Below, piece by piece: positions 4,349 through 62,740 of a stretch of 64,000 nt of DNA. Below the pieces are notes generated by a model. That model made no database searches and was not told the origin of the DNA. It worked only from the letters and a program-made list of their open reading frames with translations. This stretch comes from an uncultured bacterium (GTDB lineage: Bacteria > Patescibacteriota > Minisyncoccia > Phycocordibacterales > GWA1-40-21). Location of the stretch: assembly GCA_903822075.1 (NCBI GenBank), contig CAIJNK010000021.1:13112-77111 (forward strand), given 5' to 3'. Position 1 is the first letter of the stretch; every line of letters begins with the position of its first letter. Both the position numbers and the translations under genes were made by a program.

Positions 4349-4452
4349 TCTATTTTATGATTAATAATACCAACTAGATATAGTGGCCATTATACTTGAA
4401 ATAAAGTGATTTTTAAAGTATCCTACATGAAGCTAATGACTTTAGCTATATT

Positions 4453-28501: not shown

Positions 28502-29626
28502 TTATCCCATGTCCTGCAGACGTCTGAGGGCCAGACCAATGGCCACAGCAAAGGATGGCCCGGCCTGCTTCAAGACATTTTCAAGAAAAGCGGGATACTC
28601 GAGCTTCGAAAACGGATCGGCCAAGGCAACTGGCACACTGAAGCTGGCTTCAGCCTTTTCTCGGAGACCCTTGAGCAATACCCCGCCACCGGTCAGGAAT
28701 ATTTTGCTGATGTTTCGCCCAGTCTTCTTTTGGTAATTCAGGAGAACCCGGCTTATTTCAGAAAAAATATAATCCAAAGTCAGTGAAGTAATCTCGTTAA
28801 TATCCATCGATTCATTTTCTTTTTTCAAAAGTCCTCTTTCTCTTTTTATTTTTTCCGCCTCCTCCACTTTAATACCCAAAGATTTGGAAATAGCCAGAGT
28901 AATATCTTGCGAACCGCGACTAATCATATGCGAGGTGCGCAAGATCCCTTTTTCAATGATGTAAACTTTGGTCGAACCAGAACCAAAGTCAATTATCATC
29001 TGCGGTGCCGTACCCGGCTCCAAGACCGAACGCATGGAACTAAATATTTCTATCTCAGAAAATTGAGTATCAAGTTTGGCAATTTGCGTAATTTCTTTAT
29101 TCTTGGCCATCGCATCATTATGAATGACCACGAGAAGAACGTCGATTGTTTTGTCATCCGGTTTCTCCTCGCTATTTTGATATTCAGAAACAATATTTTC
29201 GTTTCTTGGAATAACCAAGTAATCCAGACTAACTTCGGAAATAGGCACCGGAATATATTTTCTGGCCTCGAGCGGAATCATCTGGGCGAGCTGCTTGGGG
29301 TCCGTTTTGGGCAACTTAATAAAGGAGACCAAACTTGACCCCATGGGAATGGAGATTCCACATTTATTAGTGGTAACATTTGATTCACGCAAAACATCCA
29401 CCACCGCTTGAGCGGTTTGTTCGGTCGTTAGGTTAGTAGCCCGACCAATTTCTACGCCGGCATAAGGACCAAGGGACAATTCGCCGTAGGTTTCAAGTAT
29501 AGCCCTTCCTTTCCTCCTTTTTAACTGGACAACCTTGATGGAAGACGGGCCAATATCAATACCCAGGACACTTTTATTGTTGTCGCTTTGAAAAGCGCTT
29601 TTGAAAAAATTAACTATATCAATCAT
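28502..29626 (-). CDS. pilM: Type IV pilus assembly protein PilM (actin-like ATPase fold).
   Basis: GIDIGPSSIKVVQL phosphate-1 motif. FtsA/PilM-like layout, 374 aa. Confidence 0.75.
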   Translation of the reverse strand: MIDIVNFFKSAFQSDNNKSVLGIDIGPSSIKVVQLKRRKGRAILETYGELSLGPYAGVEIGRATNLTTEQTAQAVVDVLRESNVTTNKCGISIPMGSSLVSFIKLPKTDPKQLAQMIPLEARKYIPVPISEVSLDYLVIPRNENIVSEYQNSEEKPDDKTIDVLLVVIHNDAMAKNKEITQIAKLDTQFSEIEIFSSMRSVLEPGTAPQMIIDFGSGSTKVYIIEKGILRTSHMISRGSQDITLAISKSLGIKVEEAEKIKRERGLLKKENESMDINEITSLTLDYIFSEISRVLLNYQKKTGRNISKIFLTGGGVLLKGLREKAEASFSVPVALADPFSKLEYPAFLENVLKQAGPSFAVAIGLALRRLQDMG

Positions 29627-29668
29627 GTTTGTATACTATTTACGCATTGTATTATATCATACCTAGAA

Positions 29669-30391
29669 ATGAATAACAGAACCATAGCCCGGCTCAAAGA
29701 ATTAACAAATTGGGTAATGGACGGGCTGGCCGATATCCTTCTCCCTAAAGAAAGAAAGGTTCGGTTTTTGGAAACGCTTGGGCCTGATGGTCTCTTCACC
29801 AAGATCCCCCGGTCAGAAAACTTCGATTTTGATACGGACAAGATAAAAGCGATCTTTAATTATAAGACCGTTCTTTGCCGGCAGGCCATTTGGGAGATAA
29901 AATACCGGGCCAACGCCAAACTGATCAGTGATTTCAGCCGACTTTTATATGAGTTCATTTTGGAAGAACTCGGTGATTTGGAAACTTTCAACAATTTTAC
30001 AAATATAATTTTAATCCCCATTCCCTCTTCCAAAGAACGGCAACGGGAGAAGGGTTTTAATCAGTGCGTTCTCATAACTCGCGAACTTCTCAAAATTGAC
30101 CGAGAGAGGAATAGCCATATTTTTACTTTAAGCGAAAATTTTCTTGTCAAAGAAAAGGACACTGCCCACCAGGCCAGAGTCAGTAATCGCCGATTGCGTT
30201 TGAAAAATTTGATAAATACTTTTAGCGTTAATAACACTGGCCTGACCGACTTCGGAAAACTCTCGGAATACTCCTTCATTATCATAGATGATGTCATCAC
30301 CACCGGTGCCACCATGACGGAAGCCTTTCGCACCCTCAAATCTGCCGGCGTCTCTCTTTCAAAAATCCGCGGCTTCGCTCTGGCGCATTAA
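29669..30391 (+). CDS. comF: ComF family phosphoribosyltransferase-domain competence protein.
   Basis: IIIDDVITTGATMTEA PRTase motif. Start taken at MNNRTIARL (29669) to avoid overlap with pilM. No N-terminal zinc finger. Confidence 0.6.
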   Translation: MNNRTIARLKELTNWVMDGLADILLPKERKVRFLETLGPDGLFTKIPRSENFDFDTDKIKAIFNYKTVLCRQAIWEIKYRANAKLISDFSRLLYEFILEELGDLETFNNFTNIILIPIPSSKERQREKGFNQCVLITRELLKIDRERNSHIFTLSENFLVKEKDTAHQARVSNRRLRLKNLINTFSVNNTGLTDFGKLSEYSFIIIDDVITTGATMTEAFRTLKSAGVSLSKIRGFALAH

Positions 30392-30399
30392 AAGACTTG

Positions 30400-30408
30400 T
30401 GCTATTAT
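30400..30408 (+). promoter_or_regulatory. Extended -10-like box TGCTATTAT 6 nt upstream of the ATG at 30415.
   Basis: ATGTGCTATTATCTAGATATG. The upstream ATG of the ORF track (30397) is part of this motif. Confidence 0.45.
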
Positions 30409-30414
30409 CTAGAT

Positions 30415-31731
30415 ATGAAATTTATTCTCGGGAAAAATAAACCGTGGATTTTTATTGGAGTCATTAGTGTTATCCCCCTACTGATTTGGTTGTTTATGCT
30501 GCCCGTGAATAACCGTTTTAGTAACTCCTTTGAGACAATGACGAGTTTGGGCCAAATTTCCGCTCTATTAGGCTTTTCCTTGATGGCGGTGAATATTATT
30601 CTGACCGCCCGTTTTCATTTCTTAGACCGAATCTTCTACGGACTAAATCATGTTTATGTAAAACATCATCTGATCGGCTCGGTCGCCCTTATTCTGCTCT
30701 TGTTTCATCCGCTGATTTTAGCTGTCCGCTATCTGGCTATTTCCACGCAAGCGGCAGCTCTGTTCTTATTACCCAACCTAAATTCATGGCCGCAAACTCT
30801 TGGTACCATTTCTCTCTTGATCATGATGGTCCTCCTTTTTTTCACTTTTTATCTAGCTTGGCAATATCACATTTGGAAATTTTTCCACCGGTTTCTTACC
30901 CTGGCTTTTCTTATTGGCTTTTTCCATGTTGCCTTTATCACAAGTGACGTTTCGGCTAATCTATTTCTACGCTCATACCTATTAAGCTTGGGTGCTTTGG
31001 CCCTCATTGCCTATGGTTACCGTTTGCTCGTGGAGTTTGGCCAATATGGCAAGTTTGGCTACGTCGTGTCCAAAATTCGAAAGATTAATTCGGACGTTTT
31101 GGAATTTAGCTTGGAACCAGTGGGCCAACCGATCAAATACCTGCCCGGTCAATTTACCTTTCTCTCCGTGGAGCAGGAAAATTTCAGCCGGGAAGAACAC
31201 CCCTTCTCTTTTGTTTCTGTGCCGGCCGATCGGGAAATTAAATTTACAATAAAAGCCTTGGGTGAACACACTCGTCTTCTGGCCAATTTGAAGCTCGGCT
31301 CTTTTATTTTTGCGGAAGGACCATATGGCTCTTTTGGTCAACCAGAACATAGTGGTTTACCGGCGAAGAAAGAGATTTGGATTGCCGGCGGAATCGGCAT
31401 AACTCCTTTTGTCAGTCTGGCACATGATATGGAGAAAAGCGGCCGCCGGGCAGATCTGTACCTATCCTTCCGTTCGCCGGAAGAAGATATTTATGTTGAT
31501 GACCTGAAAGACCTGGCCTTAAAGAATCCGGGATTAAAAGTGTTCGTTCACTACAGCCGTAATGAAGGTTACCTGACAGCCGATAAAGTGGAAAGGCTAA
31601 GCGGGCCGCTAAGCGGTTTACCCATTCATATTTGCGGACCAATCCCGTTAATGCAATCTTTAAGAAAACAGTTTATAATTAAAGGCGTAAACAATAATAA
31701 TATTCACTCGGAAGAATTTGATTTTAAATAA
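30415..31731 (+). CDS. Ferric-reductase/NADPH-oxidase-like flavocytochrome (ferric reductase TM domain + FAD-binding + NAD-binding).
   Basis: 6 TM helices with conserved His pairs. EHPFSF FAD-binding motif (HPF[ST]). C-terminal GGIGITPF NAD(P)-binding motif. Confidence 0.7.
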   Translation: MKFILGKNKPWIFIGVISVIPLLIWLFMLPVNNRFSNSFETMTSLGQISALLGFSLMAVNIILTARFHFLDRIFYGLNHVYVKHHLIGSVALILLLFHPLILAVRYLAISTQAAALFLLPNLNSWPQTLGTISLLIMMVLLFFTFYLAWQYHIWKFFHRFLTLAFLIGFFHVAFITSDVSANLFLRSYLLSLGALALIAYGYRLLVEFGQYGKFGYVVSKIRKINSDVLEFSLEPVGQPIKYLPGQFTFLSVEQENFSREEHPFSFVSVPADREIKFTIKALGEHTRLLANLKLGSFIFAEGPYGSFGQPEHSGLPAKKEIWIAGGIGITPFVSLAHDMEKSGRRADLYLSFRSPEEDIYVDDLKDLALKNPGLKVFVHYSRNEGYLTADKVERLSGPLSGLPIHICGPIPLMQSLRKQFIIKGVNNNNIHSEEFDFK

Positions 31732-31738
31732 ATTAACC

Positions 31739-32368
31739 ATGAAAAATTACATCACTATTTCCTTATTTATTTTTTGGGCTGTCGTCGTTGCTATTCTGAC
31801 GGCCGGTTTGGTTTTTTATAACAACAATAATACTCCACTGCCGATTACGGCTAATTCGGGAACAAACTCCACCACCACAAATACTATTGCCAGCACGCCA
31901 GTCGGCTCGAACACCATTAGCGGTTCCAAAGCAAATAAAACAAGCGCACCAAGAGTTACTTCCCCGGCCAATATCAATACCGCCCAGACACCGGTAATCA
32001 CTCCTGCGCCAGCTCCAACCAATAATTCCGTCGTCCTGAGTGCTGCTGAAGTGGCCAAACATAATACGGCCAGTGACTGTTGGATGATTTTGAGCGGAAA
32101 AGTTTACAATTTTACCTCCTTCATCCCTAGCCATCCCGGCGGTTCGTCCATGGTTCCCTACTGCGGACGAGACGGCACCAGTTCCTTCGTGAGCGGTCCG
32201 CCCCACCGGCATTCATCTTTTGCCGACAGCCTGCTTCCGAACTACTATATCGGTGACTTGAATCAAGCGGTGTCTGCCAATCAGACACCGCTTTTGTCTC
32301 CCCCAAACACTTCACCTGCCTTACCGGCCAATCTTCAAAACGGTGATAATGAGGGCAATGATGATTAA
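31739..32368 (+). CDS. Membrane-anchored cytochrome b5-like heme-binding domain protein with Thr/Ser/Pro-rich linker.
   Basis: N-terminal TM anchor, low-complexity T/S/P linker, WMILSGKVYNFTSFIPSHPGG (cyt b5 HPGG motif). The ORF-track start 31718 is a TTG; the ATG is at 31739. Confidence 0.65.
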   Translation: MKNYITISLFIFWAVVVAILTAGLVFYNNNNTPLPITANSGTNSTTTNTIASTPVGSNTISGSKANKTSAPRVTSPANINTAQTPVITPAPAPTNNSVVLSAAEVAKHNTASDCWMILSGKVYNFTSFIPSHPGGSSMVPYCGRDGTSSFVSGPPHRHSSFADSLLPNYYIGDLNQAVSANQTPLLSPPNTSPALPANLQNGDNEGNDD

Positions 32369-32373
32369 ATAAT

Positions 32374-32991
32374 ATGAAACTTTTTCTAACATCCATCGGC
32401 CTGCCCAATAAAAAAATAAGAGAAGCTTTTTTAGCTATCCTACCCAAAGAGCCAAAACTTTGCTCCGTCCTGCTTATCGCTTATATCCGCACCAAAGAAG
32501 AAGAAAAATTTCTGATTTTCCTGAAAAAAGAAATGACCAAAGTTGGCATAACGGACATTTATTTTTTTAACCTTAAGAAAGAAATTTTTGCTGAAACCAC
32601 AGAAAGCAAAAAAACTTATGACATCATTTACATGTCCGGTGGCAGTACTTTTGAAATGCTGGAACGGATCCGCCAAACCAAAGTTGATTCATTCATCAAG
32701 AAATATTCCGCTAGGAAAAACGCCATCTACTTTGCTTTAAGCGCCGGCAGTATCATCGCCGGGCCAAACATTGAAACCGCCGGCTGGGGCAGTGAAGCGG
32801 ATGATAACCCACTCAATTTAAAAAACCTGACCGGTCTCAAACTCACCAACCTTGCCATATTCCCCCATTTCAAAAAGAGGCTTGAAAAAGAAGTGACCGC
32901 CTTTCAAAATAAAGTCACCTATCCTATTATCCCCCTCACCGACAAACAAGCAGTACTCATAGAAGATAAAAAATATAAGGTAATTGGATAA
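32374..32991 (+). CDS. Peptidase S51 family (dipeptidase E/cyanophycinase-like).
   Basis: YMSGGSTFEML (GGNTF-like) and ALSAGSII motifs, 205 aa. Confidence 0.6.
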   Translation: MKLFLTSIGLPNKKIREAFLAILPKEPKLCSVLLIAYIRTKEEEKFLIFLKKEMTKVGITDIYFFNLKKEIFAETTESKKTYDIIYMSGGSTFEMLERIRQTKVDSFIKKYSARKNAIYFALSAGSIIAGPNIETAGWGSEADDNPLNLKNLTGLKLTNLAIFPHFKKRLEKEVTAFQNKVTYPIIPLTDKQAVLIEDKKYKVIG

Positions 32992-32993
32992 AA

Positions 32994-33392
32994 TTATCTA
33001 TTCAAATAAGTAATCGTCAGCTGTAAAACAGTGGCAAAAGATACCCAAGCTAAATATGGGATTTGGATATAAGTCACCCAGTGAGCATAAGGATAAATAG
33101 CAATCGTGAGCCAGATAAGAGTACTGAGGACCAGGAGGATATCCACGGCCGACAGGAAATTATTCTTCAGGCCAAATTGAAAATAAGTAAAAGAAAAATT
33201 AAAGACTAGATTTAAAATAAAAGGCAGAATGACAATAAACGGAATCTTTTTGGTCAAAAACAAATAACCAACGTAACCGTAGGAAATGGCAATCAAGACA
33301 TATAAAAAAGTCCAGACCGGACCAAAGAGCCAGGAGGGTGGTGACCAGGTAGGTTTAATCAGTTGCGAATACCAGTTATAAGCTTTGTTCAT
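32994..33392 (-). CDS. TspO/MBR (tryptophan-rich sensory protein) family membrane protein.
   Basis: NWYSQLIKPTWSPPSWLFGPVWTFLY N-terminal signature, 4-5 TM helices. Confidence 0.6.
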   Translation of the reverse strand: MNKAYNWYSQLIKPTWSPPSWLFGPVWTFLYVLIAISYGYVGYLFLTKKIPFIVILPFILNLVFNFSFTYFQFGLKNNFLSAVDILLVLSTLIWLTIAIYPYAHWVTYIQIPYLAWVSFATVLQLTITYLNR

Positions 33393-33407: not shown

Positions 33408-33926
33408 CTATTTCAACAATCTCGGGAATAAGTTTTGCACTTTTTCCACTTTGGTTTGAATAACATTTTGGCTGTAGACGTTGTCGGAATTGTGATGATA
33501 ATAATTCAAATGTTCCTTTTCCGCCCGATAGAAACGGTCAATCAATTTCACTTTCGTGACAATCGGCTCACCGGCATCCAGCAAATGTTTGAGATGCTTC
33601 TCAACAATTTCTTTTTGTTTCTTGTCCGAATACAAGATAATGGAACGATACTGTGTGCCGATGTCATCACCTTGACGATTCAATGTCGTGGCATCATGAC
33701 TGGCAAAAAAGACCGCAAGCAAATCCTCCAATTTAATTTGCTCCGGATCATAATCCACTCTGACCACTTCCGCATGACCGGTCTCCCCCGTCTGCACCTG
33801 CTCATAAGTGGGAAATTTCTTGTCTCCACCGGCATAACCTGGCATCACGGCGGACACACCCCTCAAGAGTTTAAACACTGCCTCGGTACACCAGAAACAA
33901 CCGCCGCCAAAATAAATAGTTTCCAT
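33408..33926 (-). CDS. msrA: Peptide methionine-S-sulfoxide reductase MsrA.
   Basis: GGGCFWCTE active-site motif, 172 aa. Confidence 0.85.
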   Translation of the reverse strand: METIYFGGGCFWCTEAVFKLLRGVSAVMPGYAGGDKKFPTYEQVQTGETGHAEVVRVDYDPEQIKLEDLLAVFFASHDATTLNRQGDDIGTQYRSIILYSDKKQKEIVEKHLKHLLDAGEPIVTKVKLIDRFYRAEKEHLNYYHHNSDNVYSQNVIQTKVEKVQNLFPRLLK

Positions 33927-34027: not shown

Positions 34028-35902
34028 CTATTTTTTCTTCACATAAAGTGAGAAAATACGAACAGAGTTTCCTAGAGGTAGAAAGTCAGTCAAGAAATTA
34101 TACAGAGCGGCGCTCGTCGGCACCAAAACACCGGCAAAAACCAAGGCTAAACCAACCACATTGCTTATCCCCCAAATCAAAAAATCCTGATTGGCAATCT
34201 TCATGGTGTACTTGGAAACCCGTATCAGTCTGGCAATCTGAGAGAAATCGTCTTTCATTAAAACGATGTCGGATGATTCAATGGCCACATCCATTCCGAT
34301 ACTCCCCATGGAAATCCCCACGTCCGCGAGTGACAGGGCCGCCGCGTCGTTAACGCCATCCCCCACCATGGCCACCTTATATTTAGAGTTAAGTTCTTTT
34401 TTAATATAGGCCAGTTTTTGTTCCGGCAAAAGATTGGGGTAAAAATGCGTGACCCCTAACTTGTCTGCCAGTCTCTTGGCCACCCGCTCGTTGTCCCCAG
34501 TGAGCATGATTATTTTTTCCACCCCCAGCATTTTAAGTTCGGCAATATTTTTAGCCAATTGCGGTTTCACCTCATCGGACAAAACAAAGAAACCCTGAAT
34601 GCGTCCCTCGGCGCCTATCACCGTGACATTGAAGCCTTGTTCTTCCTCAGTCAGAATTTTTTTATGCAAGTCCGGAGCGACGGCAAAGCCAAACTCTTCC
34701 GCAAAGGATGGCCGACCCAGCAAGACCTTTTGCTTGCCGATCTCCGCGGTCACCCCTTTGCCCGGAATCTCCCGTGTTGTCTTTACTTCTTCGTCTACCG
34801 CCTGATGCTTGCCGTCCAGATATTCCAAAATAGCTTTTGAGATCGGATGGTCAGACTGTTCGGTAATAGTTTTAGCCAAACTGGCCAGATCCGCACAACT
34901 ATTTCCGGCACACTCAAACTTTTCTACTTTTAGCCGGCCTTTGGTAAGAGTGCCGGTCTTGTCCACAAACATAACCTTGACCTGACCCAAGGCTTCCAAA
35001 TAACTGGCTCCTTTAATGATAGCGCCGTTTTTGGCACAGTAGCTCACGGCCGTGAGGAAAGCCAAAGGCACGGCCACGGCCACGTCATCCGCACAGACCA
35101 CCAGCATGATAGCCAGAATCATTTTTAAGTTATAGCCCAGAAAAAGCAAAATAATCGCCCCGGCAAAAACCACAATCAAATAAATGGAAGCAAACTTTTC
35201 GGCTGTCGTATGAATGTCCGGCTTTTCCAATTGTGCTCCTTCCACCAGTTTGATGATTTTTTCCAAAGTTGTTTCCGTGCCCACTTTTTCGGCTCGAATA
35301 GTCAAGTGACCACTTTCAACCAAAGTGGAGCTCCAGGCTTTGTCCCCCTTCTTTTTGGCCACCGGCAGGGATTCACCGGTCAAAGATGACTCGTTCACAT
35401 CCGCCTCACCGGACACCACCTCACCGTCCACTGGCACGCGTTCACCCAGATCTACCAACACAAAATCCCCAATCATCACTTCGCTCGGCGAAACTTCTTT
35501 CACCGTTCCGCCCCGCTCCACTTTGATCTTGGTGGGTTTCAGCTTGAGCAGGCCGTCAATATTCTTGCGCGCCCGCGCCTCGTTATAAGACATGAAGATG
35601 CGGGCGGAAGCGAGCATCAAGTTTATAAACACCGCGGACAGCCACTCATGGGCCAGCAAGGAAAAAATCAACGCCACACTGGCCAAAAGATCCACGGAAA
35701 TGCGCCGCGTCTGCAAAGATTTGAAAGCGCTGTACAAGACCGGTAAAGTGCCGAGGATAGCGGTTAACAGGAGAAAATAATTACCGCCTTTTCCCGCGAG
35801 GGACTGTGGGTCCAGATTTAAAACGGAAATGAAAATAGCACCGAGTAACAAAATCACTAGCCCGACATCAAACTTGCTGACATAATCAAACGCTCGCTTC
35901 AT
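34028..35902 (-). CDS. P1B-like (heavy-metal-type) P-type ATPase lacking an N-terminal HMA domain and with CAD in place of the CPC motif.
   Basis: DKTGTLT phosphorylation motif, GDGVNDAAAL, TGES actuator motif. TM6 region VVCADDVAVAVP aligns to the CPC position. Confidence 0.75.
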   Translation of the reverse strand: MKRAFDYVSKFDVGLVILLLGAIFISVLNLDPQSLAGKGGNYFLLLTAILGTLPVLYSAFKSLQTRRISVDLLASVALIFSLLAHEWLSAVFINLMLASARIFMSYNEARARKNIDGLLKLKPTKIKVERGGTVKEVSPSEVMIGDFVLVDLGERVPVDGEVVSGEADVNESSLTGESLPVAKKKGDKAWSSTLVESGHLTIRAEKVGTETTLEKIIKLVEGAQLEKPDIHTTAEKFASIYLIVVFAGAIILLFLGYNLKMILAIMLVVCADDVAVAVPLAFLTAVSYCAKNGAIIKGASYLEALGQVKVMFVDKTGTLTKGRLKVEKFECAGNSCADLASLAKTITEQSDHPISKAILEYLDGKHQAVDEEVKTTREIPGKGVTAEIGKQKVLLGRPSFAEEFGFAVAPDLHKKILTEEEQGFNVTVIGAEGRIQGFFVLSDEVKPQLAKNIAELKMLGVEKIIMLTGDNERVAKRLADKLGVTHFYPNLLPEQKLAYIKKELNSKYKVAMVGDGVNDAAALSLADVGISMGSIGMDVAIESSDIVLMKDDFSQIARLIRVSKYTMKIANQDFLIWGISNVVGLALVFAGVLVPTSAALYNFLTDFLPLGNSVRIFSLYVKKK

Positions 35903-37591: not shown

Positions 37592-38056
37592 ATGAGAAAA
37601 AACCTGTTTGTAAAAGTGTCTGGTGATCTGTACCAAAAACCAAGCTTCATTAAATACCTGAGAACTGTCACACGTAAATACTTCACTGTCGTTTGCGTTG
37701 GTGGCGGAACTCAGATCAACGAGGCAATAGCTGAGAAAGGCATCGAACCTGGACCGCACGGACCAATGGGCCGTGAGCTGCCAAGTTTCGAACTTCGGCA
37801 AGTAGCGAGAGATGTGTTGGAGAGAAATCAAACTGAACTTCAAAACACCCTCGCCAGCCTTGAGATTAACGCGGTGGTGATCATCCCCGTTCTGGATCTC
37901 GGCTCGGTATTGTGCCATGTGAACGGCGACGAAATGGTCAAGACCGCCTACATCGGCTTTGATCGTCTGGTTGTCATCACGACAAAGGACCGGCTGGAAA
38001 AGAAGGCTCTGGAATTTCGGGGCTTGGACAAGGTTAAGGTGATAGGTTTGAAATGA
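37592..38056 (+). CDS. Short amino-acid-kinase-fold-like protein (truncated AAK-like).
   Basis: LFVKVSGDL and VVCVGGGTQINEA resemble AAK N-terminal lobe motifs. Only ~154 aa. SD AGGGG 5 nt before ATG. The ORF-track start 37577 is a TTG. Confidence 0.35.
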   Translation: MRKNLFVKVSGDLYQKPSFIKYLRTVTRKYFTVVCVGGGTQINEAIAEKGIEPGPHGPMGRELPSFELRQVARDVLERNQTELQNTLASLEINAVVIIPVLDLGSVLCHVNGDEMVKTAYIGFDRLVVITTKDRLEKKALEFRGLDKVKVIGLK

Positions 38057-38445
38057 AAATCAAGAAGATTCCGCGTTGGGCAAATATTGTGTTTTTCAAA
38101 GGACCGAAAGGTTTTGCTTTGGGTGACACGGTCTATTTGTCCGACCACTATCACAACCAGTTCATAGCTAGCAAGCCTTCACTTGAAACGGAGGCCCTGA
38201 TTGCTCACGAGTCAGAACATTTGGAAAGGCTCCGGAAGTTTGGGCGGTTCAGTCTCGTCAAATACTTTCTGAGTCGAAACTTCCGATTACAGGAGGAAAT
38301 TGCCGCTACCAAAGCAGAGATGGCTGTACTCAAAAAAGGCGGGCAAGTTTTTGATTATGTTGGACGAGCCAGTAGCTGGTCTTCAATCAACTATCTCTTC
38401 ATGGTCAGCTATGAAGAGGCGTATCGGATTCTTGTCGGCCTCTAG
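38053..38445 (+). CDS. Hypothetical protein with an HExxH motif (HESEH), possible small metallopeptidase-like protein.
   Basis: ATGA start/stop overlap with the upstream gene. AHESEHLERL. Confidence 0.35.
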   Translation: MKIKKIPRWANIVFFKGPKGFALGDTVYLSDHYHNQFIASKPSLETEALIAHESEHLERLRKFGRFSLVKYFLSRNFRLQEEIAATKAEMAVLKKGGQVFDYVGRASSWSSINYLFMVSYEEAYRILVGL

Positions 38446-38475
38446 ACCCCACTTCGGTGGGGTTTATTTATTTTT
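38446..38475 (+). terminator. Intrinsic terminator: 7-bp GC stem with TTCG tetraloop and T-run.
   Basis: ACCCCAC-TTCG-GTGGGGT followed by TTATTTATTTTT. Confidence 0.65.
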
Positions 38476-38490
38476 ATAATTCATCCTCTA

Positions 38491-39195
38491 TTATTCAATC
38501 TTGTCTGACTTCTGAAGATTATGCTTTGCGCATAATAGTTTTACGTTATTTGCAGACAAACTTGTACCACCCTTAGAAAAAGGTAAGTCATGATCAAAAT
38601 GTAAATTATTTGAGTCGCCGCATAAGACACACTTACCCTGATCTCTTTTCCAAACTTCTCTCTTGACCAATGAAGGAATGAGCCTTGTGTGTTCAACTTG
38701 AATATTGGTAGAACGATTTTCTTTTCTATCTGATAGTTTTAGAATATACCTAAATACATTTCTTTTACCGTCATTAACAACCTTGAAATTTACCAGGTCA
38801 AAATAACCTTTCAAGGACCACACTCCGGGAAGAACTTTTTCATATACTTTTACCAATTCAGGCACACCACCATTTTTCACAAACTCCGCAGCAGACTTAA
38901 TAAACAAACCATTTTGGGTTAATCTACCACTTGGCAGTTTATCTGGTTGATCTTCATTCTTAGGATTATGCTCGTACGATTTTTTTAAAACATCATGTCC
39001 TTCATACTCAATTGTTATACCGTCATCATAGACTTTATCAGAATATGGCGCATTCGATCTTTGAGACATCAATATGACTGAATAAGCAGGATTCATCCTA
39101 AAGTTCATCCCTCTTTGCATCGTTTGAGAGTTTTCGGCATCACACATCTCCCTATAACTTAAAATATCGTCCTGAATTTTTAAAAGATTATTCAT
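38491..39195 (-). CDS. SRA(YDG)-HNH endonuclease, putative modification-dependent (type IV) restriction enzyme.
   Basis: N-terminal VYDDGITIEYEG .. FRYILKL resembles the SRA/YDG fold. C-terminal CVLCG..HFDHDLPFSKGG..NNVKLLCAKHN is an HNH motif. Confidence 0.55.
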   Translation of the reverse strand: MNNLLKIQDDILSYREMCDAENSQTMQRGMNFRMNPAYSVILMSQRSNAPYSDKVYDDGITIEYEGHDVLKKSYEHNPKNEDQPDKLPSGRLTQNGLFIKSAAEFVKNGGVPELVKVYEKVLPGVWSLKGYFDLVNFKVVNDGKRNVFRYILKLSDRKENRSTNIQVEHTRLIPSLVKREVWKRDQGKCVLCGDSNNLHFDHDLPFSKGGTSLSANNVKLLCAKHNLQKSDKIE

Positions 39196-39201
39196 CCAAT
39201 T

Positions 39202-41214
39202 TTATTCAATAATTCTCTCCACAACCCCCTGCACGATGCCCTGTATTGTGTCTCCTTCGTTCATAATGATATCTTTGTGATCTGAATTAAACGAACGTGG
39301 CTTAAGAGTAATTCCTTCTTTTGTCCTTAAATATTCCTTAATTGTCACATTCCCATCAACTAGAGCGACAACTCTATCACCATCATGTGCTGTCTCCTTT
39401 TTCCAGCACAAGACTAGGTCACCTTCTTTTATTCCAGCTTTATTCATTGAATCGCCTCTTGCTCTTACAATAAAATAATTCAAATCCCTCCTAATTATTT
39501 TCTTTGGTACCAAAATCTCTTCCTCAATATCCTCTTGCACATCAGTCGGCGAACCACACTGAATTGAGCCCAGTAATGGCACACGAATCATAACCCCAGT
39601 ATATGGTGATATTATTTTTTGTCTTTTACTTATAACTGATTTTGTATCCCGCTGCAAGTTACTTTTAAAATATTTTCTAAGTTTTTCATCTACAACATAA
39701 ATATATGTACCTCTTATTCCCCTAGTCAATAAAGTCTTATAAATATTAATAATATATCTTTTTAATTCTTCTGGGTCAGTTATACCCCGCCAACCATTCG
39801 CGTCCATATAATTATCAGCATTGATAACTAACTTATTTTCTTTTTCATTGTAGGAAAGTTCCGGTCCTATAATCACGCCTACATAGTTTAAGTCGTAACC
39901 TTGAACAGTATGAATACAACCCACTTCATTGACTGCATTTTTTGAATTAACCCAGTCCTGATTTGTCTCATTCCAGGTCATTTTTAGACCATCAATTTCT
40001 ATATCATGGATATTAGGATTTCTCCTGCTTCTCCATTCCCATGCATAACCCGCTACCATTCTGCATAATCCAAACTCTATATCTTTTTTCTTGATATCGG
40101 AAACCATTTTATGAATGTCATCATATAAATTCAAATCATAACCAGAAAATATAGTATTTTTTATCTCCTTTAGGTCAAACAAATTATCAACAAAGGAAAT
40201 GTACTCTTCGCCAGCAATAACCCTTTGTTGGTTGACTAAATCATATCGTATAGCATTTAAATCATTAAATTTTTTGAAATTTATGTCTGCCGGTCTGACA
40301 CTTTGATTTTTATCATAAAAAAATATCTGGTGCTTTGATGATTTTAATATCCAATCTAATTCAGTCCCTTCATTACCTAATGCGAATTTTCTATTTGTCT
40401 TATCGAATGACTGATAGTTAGTAATATTCCGCCTTTGTTTTAGACGGTGAGCTTCATCTACTATTAAAATATCATACCTTTTCTTAGTCACGTCATTTGG
40501 GCCAATCACCATTGAGGACTTCAAGTCCTTAACCTTTGAGAGCACTCGACGTATTGTTCGTCGTAACGAAGTCATAGGTACCACTAAACCCACCTCAAGA
40601 TTTTTAGTCTCATCTTTCTCTTTTAAAAATTTGACCAAATACACAGCAAGGATAGTTTTGCCTGTCCCAGGTTTTCCATTTATGATATAAGACCCTTCTT
40701 TATCTTTTAGTATATTCTGAAATATATCATCAGCTACAACCATTTGATCTTCCGTTAAGGATTTATAAGGTGAATATTTAAAAAGATCACTGTTTCTTAT
40801 CTGTACAAGATCTTTTTTTACCAACTCCTTCTTTTGCAAATCTTTCCAAATAATTTCAAATTTAGCTTTATACTTTTCCTTATCGTAATAATTATGATTC
40901 CTAAGACCGTCATTACCATTTTGTAAAACAAAAGATCCTTCAGCTGACATATACTGGATTAACCAAGATTCAATATCTAGCGTCGCAGATTTATTATATT
41001 CTTCATCTGTAATTACATGAATATTTTTTAGCCCTTTTCTGTCTGGATTATCCAAATGCTGTTTACTTCTGCTTATAAGGCTCGTGGTCTCACCAATATA
41101 GACCTCCCTGCCGTTTTCAAGCACGTAAACAACTGGCCAATTTTTACCAAATTCATACTGTTTAATTTTTTCAAAATCTACTCTATCAAATTTAAATGTT
41201 TTGATATCAGCCAT
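39202..41214 (-). CDS. GIY-YIG nuclease + DUF2075/Schlafen-like P-loop ATPase fused to a C-terminal LexA/UmuD-like S24 autopeptidase domain.
   Basis: VYVLENGREVYIGET..R..E (GIY-YIG). Walker A GKPGTGKT. YKTLLTRGIRGTYIYVVD (DUF2075 C-terminal signature). C-terminus VPLLGSIQCGSP..RGDSMNKAGIKEGD..VTIKEY aligns to the LexA/UmuD catalytic domain with a Cys-Gly cleavage site, Ser and Lys. Confidence 0.6.
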   Translation of the reverse strand: MADIKTFKFDRVDFEKIKQYEFGKNWPVVYVLENGREVYIGETTSLISRSKQHLDNPDRKGLKNIHVITDEEYNKSATLDIESWLIQYMSAEGSFVLQNGNDGLRNHNYYDKEKYKAKFEIIWKDLQKKELVKKDLVQIRNSDLFKYSPYKSLTEDQMVVADDIFQNILKDKEGSYIINGKPGTGKTILAVYLVKFLKEKDETKNLEVGLVVPMTSLRRTIRRVLSKVKDLKSSMVIGPNDVTKKRYDILIVDEAHRLKQRRNITNYQSFDKTNRKFALGNEGTELDWILKSSKHQIFFYDKNQSVRPADINFKKFNDLNAIRYDLVNQQRVIAGEEYISFVDNLFDLKEIKNTIFSGYDLNLYDDIHKMVSDIKKKDIEFGLCRMVAGYAWEWRSRRNPNIHDIEIDGLKMTWNETNQDWVNSKNAVNEVGCIHTVQGYDLNYVGVIIGPELSYNEKENKLVINADNYMDANGWRGITDPEELKRYIINIYKTLLTRGIRGTYIYVVDEKLRKYFKSNLQRDTKSVISKRQKIISPYTGVMIRVPLLGSIQCGSPTDVQEDIEEEILVPKKIIRRDLNYFIVRARGDSMNKAGIKEGDLVLCWKKETAHDGDRVVALVDGNVTIKEYLRTKEGITLKPRSFNSDHKDIIMNEGDTIQGIVQGVVERIIE

Positions 41215-41217
41215 TTT

Positions 41218-41565
41218 TTAAAGTTTATTATATTTCGTATGCTTTCCCTTAGCCTTTTCCACAGAATATTTTTCTTCATTTTTCTTCATTTTTTTCTCAA
41301 AAGATTTAATAACATCAATTTTCAAATCGTGACTCATTAATAATATCCAGTACAAAGTATCTGCAAGCTCCTCGCCGATTTCATCCTTATGTTCAATAAC
41401 ATATTTATCCATTTCTTCCTTATTCTTCCACTGAAAATGCTCCATCACCTCCCCAGCTTCCAAGACAAGGGAAATAGCTAAGTCTTTGGGATTATGAAAC
41501 TGCTGCCAATCGCGAGCGTCTCGAAAAGCCACAATTCTTTTGGTCAATTCTGCCAAAGTTTTCAT
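41218..41565 (-). CDS. MazG-like all-alpha NTP pyrophosphohydrolase domain protein.
   Basis: EAGEVMEHFQWK .. EELADTLYWILL MazG motifs. Start taken at MKTLAEL (41565). The ORF-track GTG start (41589) reads through the promoter box. Confidence 0.6.
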   Translation of the reverse strand: MKTLAELTKRIVAFRDARDWQQFHNPKDLAISLVLEAGEVMEHFQWKNKEEMDKYVIEHKDEIGEELADTLYWILLMSHDLKIDVIKSFEKKMKKNEEKYSVEKAKGKHTKYNKL

Positions 41566-41572
41566 AGAATAA

Positions 41573-41581
41573 ATGGTAGCA
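41573..41581 (-). promoter_or_regulatory. -10-like box TGCTACCAT (TGTGCTA-prefixed) 7 nt upstream of the MazG-like ATG.
   Basis: Minus-strand reading TTTTGTGCTACCATTTATTCTATG. Confidence 0.3.
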
Positions 41582-41644
41582 CAAAACACCCCTCAAAACC
41601 ACCGTTATTTGAGCCGTCTGAGCGAGTTGCGACTTATGTGCGGA

Positions 41645-41691
41645 GAATAAAAATAGGCGGAAGGTGGATTTTGAAATCCATACCTTCCGCC
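41645..41691 (-). terminator. Intrinsic terminator (minus strand): 10-bp stem GGCGGAAGGT/ACCTTCCGCC followed by a T-run. Marks the island / GC-block boundary.
   Basis: Perfect inverted repeat with an inner GGATTT/AAATCC stem. Minus strand continues TATTTTTATT. Confidence 0.6.
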
Positions 41692-41735
41692 CGCCTGATT
41701 ACCCCGCTCGCTCGATCACTACCCATCGTTCCTGA

Positions 41736-42518
41736 TTATTCCTTGTACAGGCGATGGTTGTAATATTCCAACCCGAAACGCCCGTCCTTACCCTTGGTGG
41801 GATCACCTTTGTAGGCCGTGACGCCGCAGTTGATGGGCTTGTCATGCTCATCAACTCCGATAAAATCATCCGCGTCCCACCGCTCCAGATTGGCCCTGAT
41901 GCCCAAGATGTTCAGATGATGCGTAACCGCCAGAATCCGTTGCTCGGCAAAATCCCGAACTACGGTGTTCATCCACGAACGATTCCGCTCCCGGACGTCC
42001 GGCACGCTTTCACCCTGCGGATACCGATACCAGTACCGGCCTTCAAGCTGGTACAGCTTGCCTTGCTCCGGGTGAATGGCGTGGAAAACGCGCCAATCAT
42101 TGTAAAGCAAAGCCAGACCATGTTCCTGTTCCCGAATTCGTTCGTCTTCAATCACCCGAACGTGCTCGAGCCCCGGCCAACCCCGAATCAAGCCGGCCAA
42201 AGTATTCCGCGTTCGCTCGTACGGCGACACGAAGATGATGTGCGGAAGAGCATCACCATACCGGTCCCAGAGTGCAGCGCCCACTTCCCTGGCTCGCTTA
42301 GCTTCCAGATCCCGCAACGGCGTTTTGGCATCACCCACGCCAAGTGCAAACTGAGCCTGGACCGCTTTAGCCAAAGCTTGCGTCGTTTCAGATTCCGGAT
42401 TCTGTTTGAACTCCGTGAGAAAAGTCTGATAAAGCTTACTTTTGGCTTTCAAGCTTTTCAAAACATTGTAGGCCGACACATCATGTCGGACCAAAAGCAT
42501 CAATTCCGGCCACTTCAT
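41736..42518 (-). CDS. Histidine phosphatase superfamily (phosphoglycerate mutase family) protein, GC-rich.
   Basis: LLVRHDVSAYN (RHG-like) and VTHHLNILG (second His) motifs. SD AGAGGGG. Confidence 0.6.
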   Translation of the reverse strand: MKWPELMLLVRHDVSAYNVLKSLKAKSKLYQTFLTEFKQNPESETTQALAKAVQAQFALGVGDAKTPLRDLEAKRAREVGAALWDRYGDALPHIIFVSPYERTRNTLAGLIRGWPGLEHVRVIEDERIREQEHGLALLYNDWRVFHAIHPEQGKLYQLEGRYWYRYPQGESVPDVRERNRSWMNTVVRDFAEQRILAVTHHLNILGIRANLERWDADDFIGVDEHDKPINCGVTAYKGDPTKGKDGRFGLEYYNHRLYKE

Positions 42519-42675: not shown

Positions 42676-43044
42676 TCAAGCTGGAATAAATTTAAGAGAG
42701 ACAGAATTTACGCAGTGACGAACGTTTTTAGGCGTCAATCTTTCATCTAAAAATACGTGGCCCAGATGGGCGCCACAATTCGCACAAGAAATCTCCGTTC
42801 TCAAGCCGTCGGCATCCGGAGTCTTTATTATTGCCCCCGGTATCTCGTCATCAAAACTGGGCCACCCACACTGCGCATCAAACTTATCTTTGGAACGGTA
42901 AAGCGGCGTCTCACATTGTCGACAAACATATACGCCCTCTTTATAAAAATCATCGTACTCGCCGGAAAAGGCAGCTTCGGTGCCCTTGTCAATAATTACC
43001 TTTTTCTCCACTGGCGTAAGTTTTTTCAACTTGATCTTTTTCAT
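42676..43044 (-). CDS. msrB: Peptide methionine-R-sulfoxide reductase MsrB (SelR).
   Basis: CRQCETPLY .. CGWPSF .. [12 protein letters not shown] (two CxxC pairs + catalytic region). ATG chosen at MKKIKL. Confidence 0.85.
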
Positions 43045-43214
43045 ACATGTAATCATACCGCTTTAGATTTAATTTGTCATGAATATTGTAGAAATTTTTA
43101 ATAAAGCAACCGGTGTCAGACTGAGCGATATGGATGATTTAATTAAAAAAGAAGCCCGCAACCGGTAAGGGTTGCGGGCACACGACTTTGAAATAACTCC
43201 TCGTTGAAAACAGA

Positions 43215-62204: not shown

Positions 62205-62628
62205 GGGGATGATCGGCCTAGACATCTGATCTGTCCTTGATTGCGCAAAGTGGTGCATTATTATACACACCTAAAATGTTAATAAACAAACAACTGCTAA
62301 TAGCATTGTTTCAAGAGTAAAGTCTGTTGTGTCCCCATATTTTGCGGCCAACTCCTTTGCTTTCGCTTACGTAGCTTAATCTTACGATTAACGCCTAAGC
62401 GGCATCCATCTTGTCCATATCTAATAAACAAGCGTGGGTGACATAAAATTAGATTATATTGCCAGAATGTCTCGACTGGTGATGAAATAAGGGGCTAGGT
62501 TAATAATCATTTTGTTAATTCTAAAATTATTAACTCAACTCTGCTTCACGGCAGAAATAAATTGACTAAACTTTGTAGAAGCAATTAGGATACTCTTATG
62601 CACGCGGGTTCGATTCCCGCCATCTCCA
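62205..62628 (+). ncRNA. ssrA: tmRNA (ssrA), ~424 nt. Candidate tag reading frame GCG GCC AAC TCC TTT GCT TTC GCT TAC GTA GCT TAA (..ANSFAFAYVA*).
   Basis: 5' GGGGATGATCGGCC pairs with 3' CATCTCC. 3' tRNA-like end GCACGCGGGTTCGATTCCCGCCATCTCCA matches the tmRNA T-arm/acceptor consensus. Directly downstream of smpB. Confidence 0.75.
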
Positions 62629-62740
62629 CATTTCAAAAATCCGCTCGCCTTCCCAGGTGGGCGATTTTTGTTACCTAAAAATAGTTGATTTTATCTTAAA
62701 AATATATAGACTGTATTCAGACAACAAAGGAGGCATCGAT

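Follow-up and report, generated by a model that had tools for sequence, protein, structure and literature searches.

A conserved gene pair for a NOX-like flavocytochrome and a tethered cytochrome b5: a candidate electron-export module in Patescibacteria and beyond

The closest solved relative of the enzyme considered here is SpNOX, the NADPH oxidase (NOX) of Streptococcus pneumoniae (PDB 8qq7, 8qt6), whose outer heme is unusually solvent-exposed (PMC11564096; PMC11031084) and which lacks the O2-reducing center of the eukaryotic enzymes (PMC11031084, PMC11564096). Its rates of direct reduction were 124.7 per min for cytochrome c, 48 per min for O2 and 3.6 per min for Fe3+ (PMC11564096), and the groups working on SpNOX have suggested that O2 is perhaps not the physiological acceptor and that it might use other acceptors, perhaps periplasmic partners (PMC11564096; PMC11031084; PMC5676040). 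In this study, we analyzed a stretch of 64,000 nucleotides from an uncultured member of the Patescibacteriota (contig CAIJNK010000021.1, positions 13,112 to 77,111 of the forward strand; the whole stretch is hereafter called the window, and all coordinates refer to it), in which a gene for a NOX-like flavocytochrome b (gene 1) is directly followed by a gene for a membrane-tethered cytochrome b5 that is predicted to be exported (gene 2). We found that NOX and b5 form a conserved, translationally coupled two-gene module, and the best-supported reading of this module, which had also been put forward in an initial annotation of the window, is that it probably serves as a two-component trans-membrane electron conduit.

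The only prokaryotic system with a ferric reductase domain (FRD) and an established physiological acceptor is MsrQ-MsrP of Escherichia coli. Like the NOX-b5 pair, it combines a two-heme FRD membrane protein having an exposed outer heme with an extracytoplasmic redox protein that is fed by it. On the other hand, MsrQ has no fused domain of the ferredoxin-NADP+ reductase (FNR) type, unlike gene 1, and draws its electrons either from the quinone pool (PMC11564096) or from a separate flavin reductase, Fre (PMC11031084), whereas its acceptor MsrP is a molybdoenzyme rather than a cytochrome b5. No MsrP-like gene or molybdoenzyme was found among the open reading frames (ORFs) scanned over ~14-45 kb of the window, and the MsrA and MsrB proteins encoded in the window are of the cytoplasmic type, unlike MsrP. 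More distant functional analogues, in which a tethered redox protein or a cytochrome domain is carried on a flexible linker, are the Ndh2-EetAB-PplA system of Listeria and cellobiose dehydrogenase. In flavin-based extracellular electron transfer of the Listeria type, cytoplasmic NADH electrons are passed to a surface protein and then to external acceptors. These systems have no sequence relationship to the NOX-b5 pair, and they use quinones and flavins or another cytochrome fold.

With regard to the b5 protein, the best-matching described protein is cytochrome b558 of Ectothiorhodospira vacuolata (1cxy); a genomic review of the Ectothiorhodospiraceae listed b558 as having a cysteine disulfide and a signal peptide, as probably periplasmic and as being of unknown function (PMC8877833). 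The window b5 has its Cys residues at the same positions and, like b558, appears to be exported; however, b558 is a soluble periplasmic protein whose signal peptide is cleaved, whereas the window b5 remains anchored and has, in addition, a long stalk and an acidic tail.

The co-location of the two gene families has been observed before. A 2021 preprint on the origin of membrane-associated progesterone receptor (MAPR) proteins reported PF01794 (putative ferric reductase, pFre) in 1427 of 7645 genomes of the candidate phyla radiation (CPR) and a PF00173 gene within 10 kb of PF01794 in 185 of the 1427 pFre-bearing genomes, found no such co-location outside CPR, and speculated on a membrane complex of unknown function (bioRxiv 10.1101/2021.11.17.468889). 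Its focus was a rarer operon composed of a Tyr-ligated MAPR-like protein (cytb5MY), the atypical b5-like proteins CBLA and CBLB, and a two-component system. The window pair represents the same genomic phenomenon as the CPR pFre/b5 co-location, with PF01794 and PF00173 genes only 7 nt apart. In contrast, cytb5MY, the atypical b5-like proteins and the two-component system are all absent from the window, where one classical bis-His b5 lies beside NOX and the flanking genes encode a ComF-like phosphoribosyltransferase and an S51 peptidase. Since the co-location was already on record, the window should be regarded as an ordinary example of its simplest form and not as an oddity of a reduced genome. 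The suggestion of the initial annotation that the pair is unusual in a reduced bacterium therefore had to be given up, as both genes are widespread in Patescibacteria and 185 CPR genomes had already been reported, and the value of the window by itself is limited to one more ordinary case of a reported co-location. What appears to be new, relative to the literature that we found, is the strict NOX-then-b5 order with coupled spacing, the presence of the pair outside CPR, and the tie between b558 and the NOX-linked family. Our literature searches returned no further reports of NOX-b5 pairing.

Architecture and predicted sidedness of the two proteins

The features of gene 1 were as follows:

30415..31731, + strand: NOX-like flavocytochrome b gene, 438 aa plus stop; FRD with six transmembrane (TM) helices, then an FNR-type FAD/NAD(P)H dehydrogenase domain
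30439..31041, + strand: transmembrane heme domain, helices at residues 9-28, 38-64, 84-109, 125-147, 151-174 and 183-209 (DSSP, AlphaFold 2 (AF2) model)
30664..30708, + strand: predicted heme ligands of TM3, His84 (30664-30666, inner heme) and His98 (30706-30708, outer heme), 13 residues between them
30709..30786, + strand: outer C-loop between TM3 and TM4, approximately residues 99-124, with P99, Y106, S110, A114, F117 and P120
30886..30927, + strand: predicted heme ligands of TM5, His158 (30886-30888, inner heme) and His171 (30925-30927, outer heme), 12 residues between them
31198..31212, + strand: FAD-binding motif HPFSF, residues 262-266
31387..31410, + strand: NAD(P)H-binding motif GGIGITPF, residues 325-332

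The mechanical ORF of gene 1 (30397-31731) begins with TTG, and both the homologues and database entry P0121 support the ATG at 30415 as the actual start. First, the six-TM architecture of the NOX/FRE type that had been assigned to this protein in the initial annotation was borne out by domain matches, by the closest structure and by a structural model. Pfam scores exceeded the respective cutoffs for PF01794 Ferric_reduct (34.4 bits, cutoff 28), PF08022 FAD_binding_8 (41.4 bits, cutoff 22) and PF00175 NAD_binding_1 (31.7 bits, cutoff 22), and the closest solved structure was SpNOX (8qt6; E = 1e-42 across residues 53-424). The AF2 model, which was built with 20 homologues (pLDDT 84) and whose helices were assigned by DSSP, consisted of six long helices followed by the FNR-type domain, and its top PDB match was also SpNOX (TM-score 0.75/0.82, with 26% identity when structurally aligned). 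The TM count of six is the number expected by Hajjar et al. 2017, who allowed a range of 3-7 (PMC5676040).

Second, the alignment contained all four histidines of the bis-heme pairs in TM3 and TM5, whose absence would have spoken against a two-heme enzyme. H84/H98 and H158/H171 were invariant across the 20 homologues (41-76% identical to the window protein) and aligned with SpNOX H69/H83 and H129/H142, respectively. By homology to SpNOX, for which the inner and outer ligand roles were taken from PMC11564096, H84/H158 are predicted to hold the inner heme and H98/H171 the outer heme. The spacing of 13 residues in TM3 and 12 in TM5 agrees with that given for prokaryotic NOX proteins (PMC5676040).

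Third, both nucleotide-binding modules named in the initial annotation were located at the residues listed above. The GIGITP part of GGIGITPF matches the published NAD(P)H pattern of prokaryotic NOX (PMC5676040). The F at the fifth position of HPFSF departs from the strict FAD pattern H[PSA]F[TS][LIMV], a mismatch that is perhaps trivial; I, V, M and F all occur at this position among the homologues.

With respect to O2, Leu102, which is invariant in the 20 homologues, occupies position +4 from the outer-heme ligand His98, presumably the position at which His119 of the NOX2 O2 site sits, and by sequence no Arg or Lys was present in the outer half of TM2. The two marks of the eukaryotic O2-reducing center (+4 His and TM2 Arg) thus both appear to be missing from gene 1. 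In general, SpNOX and gene 1 are much alike: each is a single chain with six TM helices, two bis-His hemes (predicted in gene 1), FAD and NAD(P)H domains, no regulatory domains, short outer loops, no His of the eukaryotic O2 site and a C-terminal aromatic residue (F435 in gene 1, F397 in SpNOX). They differ in that SpNOX belongs to another clade, whose loci are without a b5 gene, and has a shorter outer loop between TM3 and TM4. A group comparison revealed that this loop was longer and conserved in 21 b5-linked NOX proteins, whereas it was gapped in 42 b5-less ones; the SpNOX alignment was also gapped here. Among the outer-face residues of NOX that were compared, the TM3-TM4 loop alone distinguished the b5-linked proteins. 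Lying beside the outer heme, it is a candidate docking surface for b5.

The features of gene 2 and of the spacer before it were as follows:

31732..31738, + strand: spacer of 7 nt between the NOX stop (TAA, 31729-31731) and the b5 start
31739..32368, + strand: gene for a membrane-tethered cytochrome b5, predicted to be exported, 209 aa plus stop
31745..31825, + strand: N-terminal signal-anchor helix, residues 3-29, after Lys2 (AF2 pLDDT ~90; Kyte-Doolittle 2.63)
31826..32026, + strand: disordered Ser/Thr/Pro/Asn-rich stalk, residues 30-96 (pLDDT <50; 65% S+T+P+N)
32027..32278, + strand: cytochrome b5 heme domain, residues 97-180, a confident b5 fold in the AF2 model
32078-32080 and 32162-32164, + strand: Cys114 and Cys142, predicted disulfide; aligned with the Cys residues of b558
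32132-32134 and 32210-32212, + strand: predicted b5 axial ligands His132 (of HPGG) and His158, from the alignment
32279..32365, + strand: disordered C-terminal tail, ending in the acidic cluster GDNEGNDD

The initial annotation had described gene 2 as overlapping the stop codon of gene 1. This is true for the mechanical ORF only (31718-32368, beginning with TTG), whereas the start supported by homologues lies 7 nt downstream of the stop. An ATG equivalent to that at 31739 opens all 20 aligned homologues (MKN/MKK...), which indicates that the overlap is an artefact of the longest-ORF rule, and database entry P0001 also has the 209-aa form. The remainder of that description, a TM anchor, a Thr/Ser/Pro-rich stalk and a b5 domain with HPGG, agreed with the Pfam match to PF00173 Cyt-b5 (E = 3e-19) and with the AF2 model. 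The best sequence match was b558 (1cxy; E = 2e-15, 40% identity), which was also the best fold match of the model (TMt 0.84); the values for 1cxy and eukaryotic b5 proteins together ranged from 0.74 to 0.84. Of the two axial ligands, His132 was invariant and His158 nearly invariant in the 20 homologues, and we assign gene 2 to the classical bis-His b5 type, with heme binding predicted from the sequence. C114 and C142, the sole Cys residues of the protein, were invariant in the family and aligned with the two Cys of b558, which places gene 2 in the exported, disulfide-bearing bacterial b5 (b558) type, a disulfide being predicted for the window protein by analogy. In the anchor, F10 and F12 were invariant and W13, A14, G23 and L24 nearly so.

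The form of the protein varied among homologues. An acidic tail recurred in CPR and DPANN proteins, whereas it was absent from proteobacterial and most Saccharibacteria ones. Many homologues of ~300 aa contained two b5 domains in tandem after the same anchor, the second filling the region of the stalk; the window protein is limited to a single one. At locus L163 (2025-4007), an ORF contained three b5 domains in a row, with no NOX gene in the stretch examined.

As to the sidedness of the pair, homology to SpNOX predicts that the FNR domain of NOX is cytoplasmic and that the His98/His171 heme is at the outer face. The N-terminus of b5 is MK, followed by a 23-residue hydrophobic helix, and the hydropathy of the N-terminal window was at least 1.6 in 96 of 97 scorable homologous b5 ORFs. 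The N-termini of proteobacterial b5 homologues resembled cleavable signal peptides that end in ..LA, with xE after the cleavage point. Based on the signal-anchor, these hydrophobic N-termini and the Cys pair matching that of periplasmic b558, b5 is predicted to be extracytoplasmic, in agreement with the initial annotation.

Linkage, co-inheritance and distribution of the pair

To describe the linkage of the two genes, two scans were carried out. Scan 1, in which the NOX protein was the query, covered 80 loci of a species-level genome collection; a strong same-strand b5 ORF was present directly downstream of NOX in 22 of them, and a weaker b5-like neighbor in 9 further loci. Scan 2, in which the b5 protein was the query, covered 80 metagenome loci, of which 69 had sufficient upstream sequence. 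NOX was immediately upstream of b5 in 60 of these 69 informative loci (87%), 59 by an automatic rule plus L115, whose stop-to-stop ORFs overlap. Thus, the b5 gene is linked to NOX in other genomes as well, as a two-component reading would require. In the 84 adjacent pairs, b5 started a median of 3 nt after the NOX stop; this gap was at most 20 nt in 74 pairs, and 32 pairs had a 4-nt ATGA overlap, which is typical of translational coupling.

The genes flanking the pair varied among loci. All-against-all clustering of the ORFs of 34 loci showed NOX and b5 as the only genes in common, whereas ABC transporters, DUF4352 proteins and extra b5-like genes recurred in small subsets of loci only. Moreover, pairwise identities of NOX and b5 were correlated (r = 0.81, 64 pairs; none of 2000 permutations was as high), which shows that NOX and b5 are passed on together, physical contact not being thereby proven.

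Scans for transcription signals were uninformative on co-transcription, since the counts of promoter-like and terminator-like sites around the pair were no higher than in shuffled sequence. The scan found neither kind of site in the 7-nt spacer. A weak promoter-like match was located at 31672-31701 (+), ~35 nt upstream of the b5 start, in a region where the number of matches was at the chance level.

Natural fusions of the two proteins were also sought. None of the top 120 matches of a chimeric query against 5.8 billion proteins combined PF01794 with PF00173, and a HMMER scan of 1.84 billion representatives yielded no NOX-b5 fusion among the best 150 (50%-identity) matches. The sole long matches among these 150, P0255 and P0388, were considered as fusions and rejected, as their N-terminal extensions of ~150 aa contain no b5 domain. 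These extensions had no Pfam match; one is Pro/Thr/Ser-rich and the other looks soluble.

The nearest named homologues of both proteins came from many Patescibacteria lineages. The b5-linked loci were concentrated in the closest relatives and formed essentially one clade of a neighbor-joining NOX tree. This clade stands apart from the b5-less clades of SpNOX, the Alphaproteobacteria, the Chloroflexota and most of the Actinomycetota. Judging by record titles, the pair also occurs outside CPR, in Pacearchaeota, Woesearchaeota, Cellvibrionaceae, Porticoccaceae, Marinimicrobium and a betaproteobacterium. At one such locus, L010, there is a gene for a translation factor that combines an IF-2 domain with EF-Tu domain 4, an arrangement that we take to be typical of archaeal aIF5B and that would fit an archaeal contig.

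The proteobacterial b5 proteins adjacent to NOX were small, had N-termini resembling signal peptides and were 51-52% identical to b558 (1cxy). This identity puts the sole characterised bacterial b5 in the NOX-linked family and suggests that b558 has a NOX-like partner.

Several further observations were made on single loci or small groups of loci. Proteobacterial b5 ORFs downstream of NOX were seen in L046, L050, L055, L073 and L083. In a separate NOX clade (L040, 2605-5182; L043, L045, L058 and L065), the neighbors of NOX were two or three b5-like genes of divergent sequence (Pfam Cyt-b5 E-values from 1e-7 to 1e-12), and these loci probably contain the cytb5MY/CBLA/CBLB operon of bioRxiv 10.1101/2021.11.17.468889. 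MacB-type ABC transporter genes (ABC_tran plus MacB_PCD/FtsX) directly preceded the pair at some loci of Saccharibacteria and Pacearchaeota (L018, 1760-3774; L033, 942-3853; L010, 874-3840). They are of the same broad type as the heme-efflux system HrtAB, a link to heme being speculative. In one locus titled Woesearchaeota (L037, 1616-2194), a rubrerythrin gene directly follows the pair on the same strand, which hints at a relation to oxidative stress at this single locus.

Neighborhood of the pair in the window

The genes closest to the pair, together with those that had been proposed as its functional context, were as follows:

29588-30391, + strand: ORF with a ComF-like phosphoribosyltransferase domain (Pfam score below the curated cutoff)
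32374-32991, + strand: S51-family peptidase gene, starting 6 nt past the b5 stop
32994-33392, - strand: TspO/MBR gene (tetrapyrrole-binding family), converging on the S51 peptidase gene
33408-33926, - strand: msrA, whose product starts METIYFGGGCFWC and has no export signal
34028-35902, - strand: P-type ATPase gene, confirmed
42676-43056, - strand: msrB (SelR), 10 kb from the pair

The ComF-like ORF ends 24 nt ahead of the NOX start codon and lies between a divergent pilus cluster and NOX. The S51 peptidase gene may be co-transcribed with the pair in this genome; neither it nor TspO accompanies the pair in other genomes. The initial annotation had seen an oxidative-stress or redox neighborhood in msrA, msrB, TspO and the P-type ATPase gene. 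All four genes are real, but they were rejected as a functional context: they do not travel with the pair in other genomes, msrB lies at a distance of 10 kb, and MsrA carries no signal for export. The type IV pilus that had been noted in the same annotation was confirmed by a gene cluster for PilB, a PilT-like ATPase, PilC, PilM, PilO and a pilin. Since none of the pilus, msrA, msrB, TspO and ATPase genes is conserved with the pair over the 34 loci, they give it no functional context.

Elsewhere in the window, the stretch at 38000-42000 had a G+C content of 0.37-0.38, compared with ~0.42 in the remainder. Its genes, all on the - strand (38491-39195, 39202-41214 and 41218-41589), encode, among others, a helicase of the Schlafen group 3 type joined to an S24 (LexA-like) peptidase domain, an HNH-like protein and a pyrophosphohydrolase resembling MazG, and the stretch may be a defence or mobile island. 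A tmRNA gene was found at 62205-62631 (+), and eight tRNA genes at 4452, 10413, 10633, 11905, 12049, 12196, 53945 and 59478, five of which form a minus-strand cluster at 10.4-12.3 kb.

Proposed electron export and alternative explanations

Building on the cofactor architectures, the heme ligands, the predicted sidedness and the coupled linkage established above, we consider it reasonably probable that the pair is a dedicated operon that exports electrons from NAD(P)H through FAD and two hemes to a tethered outer b5 and from there to an acceptor. NAD(P)H would bind to the cytoplasmic C-terminal domain of NOX and deliver a hydride to FAD, from which single electrons would pass to the inner heme b (His84/His158) and then to the outer heme b (His98/His171). 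The signal-anchor and the flexible stalk of ~70 residues would hold b5 at the outer face of the membrane, so that its heme domain could dock on the exposed outer heme of NOX, take up an electron and hand it on to a further acceptor. The hemes of NOX proteins lie at ~-225 to -265 mV and those of b5 proteins at ~0 mV, and the step from NOX to b5 should therefore be downhill. Taking these potentials together with the exposed heme of SpNOX, its preference for cytochrome c and the doubts of its investigators about O2, we infer that direct heme-to-heme transfer from NOX to b5 is reasonable. The conserved b5 anchor of the window subfamily and the conserved TM3-TM4 loop could reflect a stable complex, both being confounded with relatedness.

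Three physiological roles may be envisaged for such a pair, in descending order: re-oxidation of NAD(P)H without a respiratory chain, in which electrons would be dumped on external acceptors; reduction of external Fe(III) for uptake; and protection of the cell surface against O2 or peroxide. As no regulatory domains are present, the pair should be constitutive. In addition, electron export would be driven by the membrane potential and would dissipate it, so that the pair should not conserve energy, which favors a redox-balancing outlet for NAD(P)H.

Several observations, however, weigh against electron export through b5. First, the positive-inside signal at the b5 anchor was modest: Lys and Arg were more numerous on the N-terminal side in 43 ORFs, equal in 34 and fewer in 20. 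As this count is just moderately one-sided, the sidedness of the pair is well supported but short of proof. Second, no third conserved gene that would name the terminal acceptor was found in the 34 clustered loci. Third, the two fusion searches turned up no natural NOX-b5 fusion among the top 120 and the best 150 matches, so that a physical partnership is left without the support that fusions usually lend. Fourth, some NOX genes within the b5-linked clade have no b5 inside 4 kb. Finally, the conservation of the outer C-loop is confounded with phylogeny.

An unlikely alternative, which is in fact a more specific version of the electron-export model with the acceptor named, is that the pair is an assimilatory ferric reductase, in which b5, whose acidic tail might bind Fe(III), acts as the terminal reductase and releases Fe(II) for uptake, in the manner of the eukaryotic FRE enzymes. 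A b5 potential of ~0 mV could reduce many Fe(III) chelates, and the FRD/FNR architecture is shared with the yeast FRE enzymes (by Pfam names). The acidic C-terminal tails that recur on CPR and DPANN partners would suit such a role, but they are missing from most b5 proteins of Saccharibacteria and from those of Proteobacteria, and no iron transporter was conserved beside the pair in the 34 clustered loci, the P-type ATPase of the window included in what is not conserved. Furthermore, direct reduction of Fe(III) by SpNOX was slow and judged physiologically irrelevant (PMC11564096).

It is rather unlikely that gene 1 encodes a true NADPH oxidase that produces superoxide or H2O2 from O2, as SpNOX does in vitro, with b5 as an accessory, for example a scavenger or modulator, off the main path. 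SpNOX, its closest solved relative and identical to it in architecture down to the lack of regulatory domains, does consume O2, and its describers classed it as a bona fide NOX (PMC5676040). However, SpNOX falls in a clade without b5, distinct from the b5-linked one, and the residues of the eukaryotic O2 center are absent even from SpNOX, the +4 position in gene 1 being Leu102 and not His. Later work on SpNOX found cytochrome c to be a better direct acceptor than O2 and questioned the earlier quantification of superoxide (PMC11564096). The linkage in 87% of informative loci and the translational coupling argue, moreover, for an integral role of b5. A deliberate production of reactive oxygen species would be hard to rationalize in CPR bacteria, most of which live as fermentative anaerobes.

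A still more doubtful proposal is that b5 carries no electrons and mainly captures heme and delivers it to the two-heme NOX of a heme-auxotrophic symbiont. CPR and DPANN organisms generally lack heme biosynthesis, yet the pair needs three hemes. An extracellular b5 on a long tether might serve to collect them, and genes that might be connected with heme occur at some loci, namely the tetrapyrrole-binding TspO near the pair in the window and the MacB-type ABC transporters, broadly of the heme-exporter kind, upstream of it in L018, L033 and L010; neither TspO nor the ABC genes, however, are conserved with the pair. Relatives of b5 of the MAPR type function in heme handling (bioRxiv 10.1101/2021.11.17.468889), whereas the b5 of the pair is of the classical bis-His type, with both ligands and HPGG conserved, and is not a Tyr-ligated MAPR protein. 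Its tandem b5 domains in other genomes resemble a relay, and NOX-adjacent b5 proteins with 51-52% identity to b558 were found in Proteobacteria as well. Proteobacteria make their own heme. Cytochrome b558 was presumably purified as a cytochrome, that is, as a heme protein. It is also named a cytochrome in the title of its PDB entry and in the genomic review (PMC8877833).

Finally, a meaningless adjacency, in which unrelated membrane and secreted redox genes stand side by side by chance, is very unlikely and for practical purposes excluded: the lack of a NOX-b5 fusion, which is nothing specific, is the sole point for it, whereas NOX stands directly upstream in 60 of 69 informative b5 loci with differing flanks, ATGA overlaps occur in 32 of 84 pairs, the divergence of the two genes is correlated (r = 0.81) and the pair spans CPR, DPANN and Proteobacteria by record title.

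Returning to electron export, the tethered b5 appears to be a good candidate for the long-sought acceptor to which bacterial NADPH-oxidase-like enzymes naturally deliver their electrons. A wider proposal, which we put forward only tentatively and think possible rather than probable, is that an exported b5 of the b558 type is the physiological acceptor for an entire clade of prokaryotic NOX homologues, the two together forming a NAD(P)H-driven electron-export chain. In CPR and DPANN organisms that have a wall and do not respire, the tethered, often tandem and acidic-tailed b5 would then act as a short protein wire through the envelope, and this wire would carry fermentative reducing equivalents to a host cell or to an environmental acceptor. 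The near-obligate, coupled pairing joins two open questions, that of the acceptor of bacterial NOX and that of the function of b558. If the proposal is true, it would provide the first natural partner for a bacterial NOX and a function for the orphan b558 of purple bacteria. An outlet from NAD(P)H to the cell surface would also fill a gap in the redox balance of CPR and DPANN organisms without respiratory chains, and might bear on their dependence on hosts.

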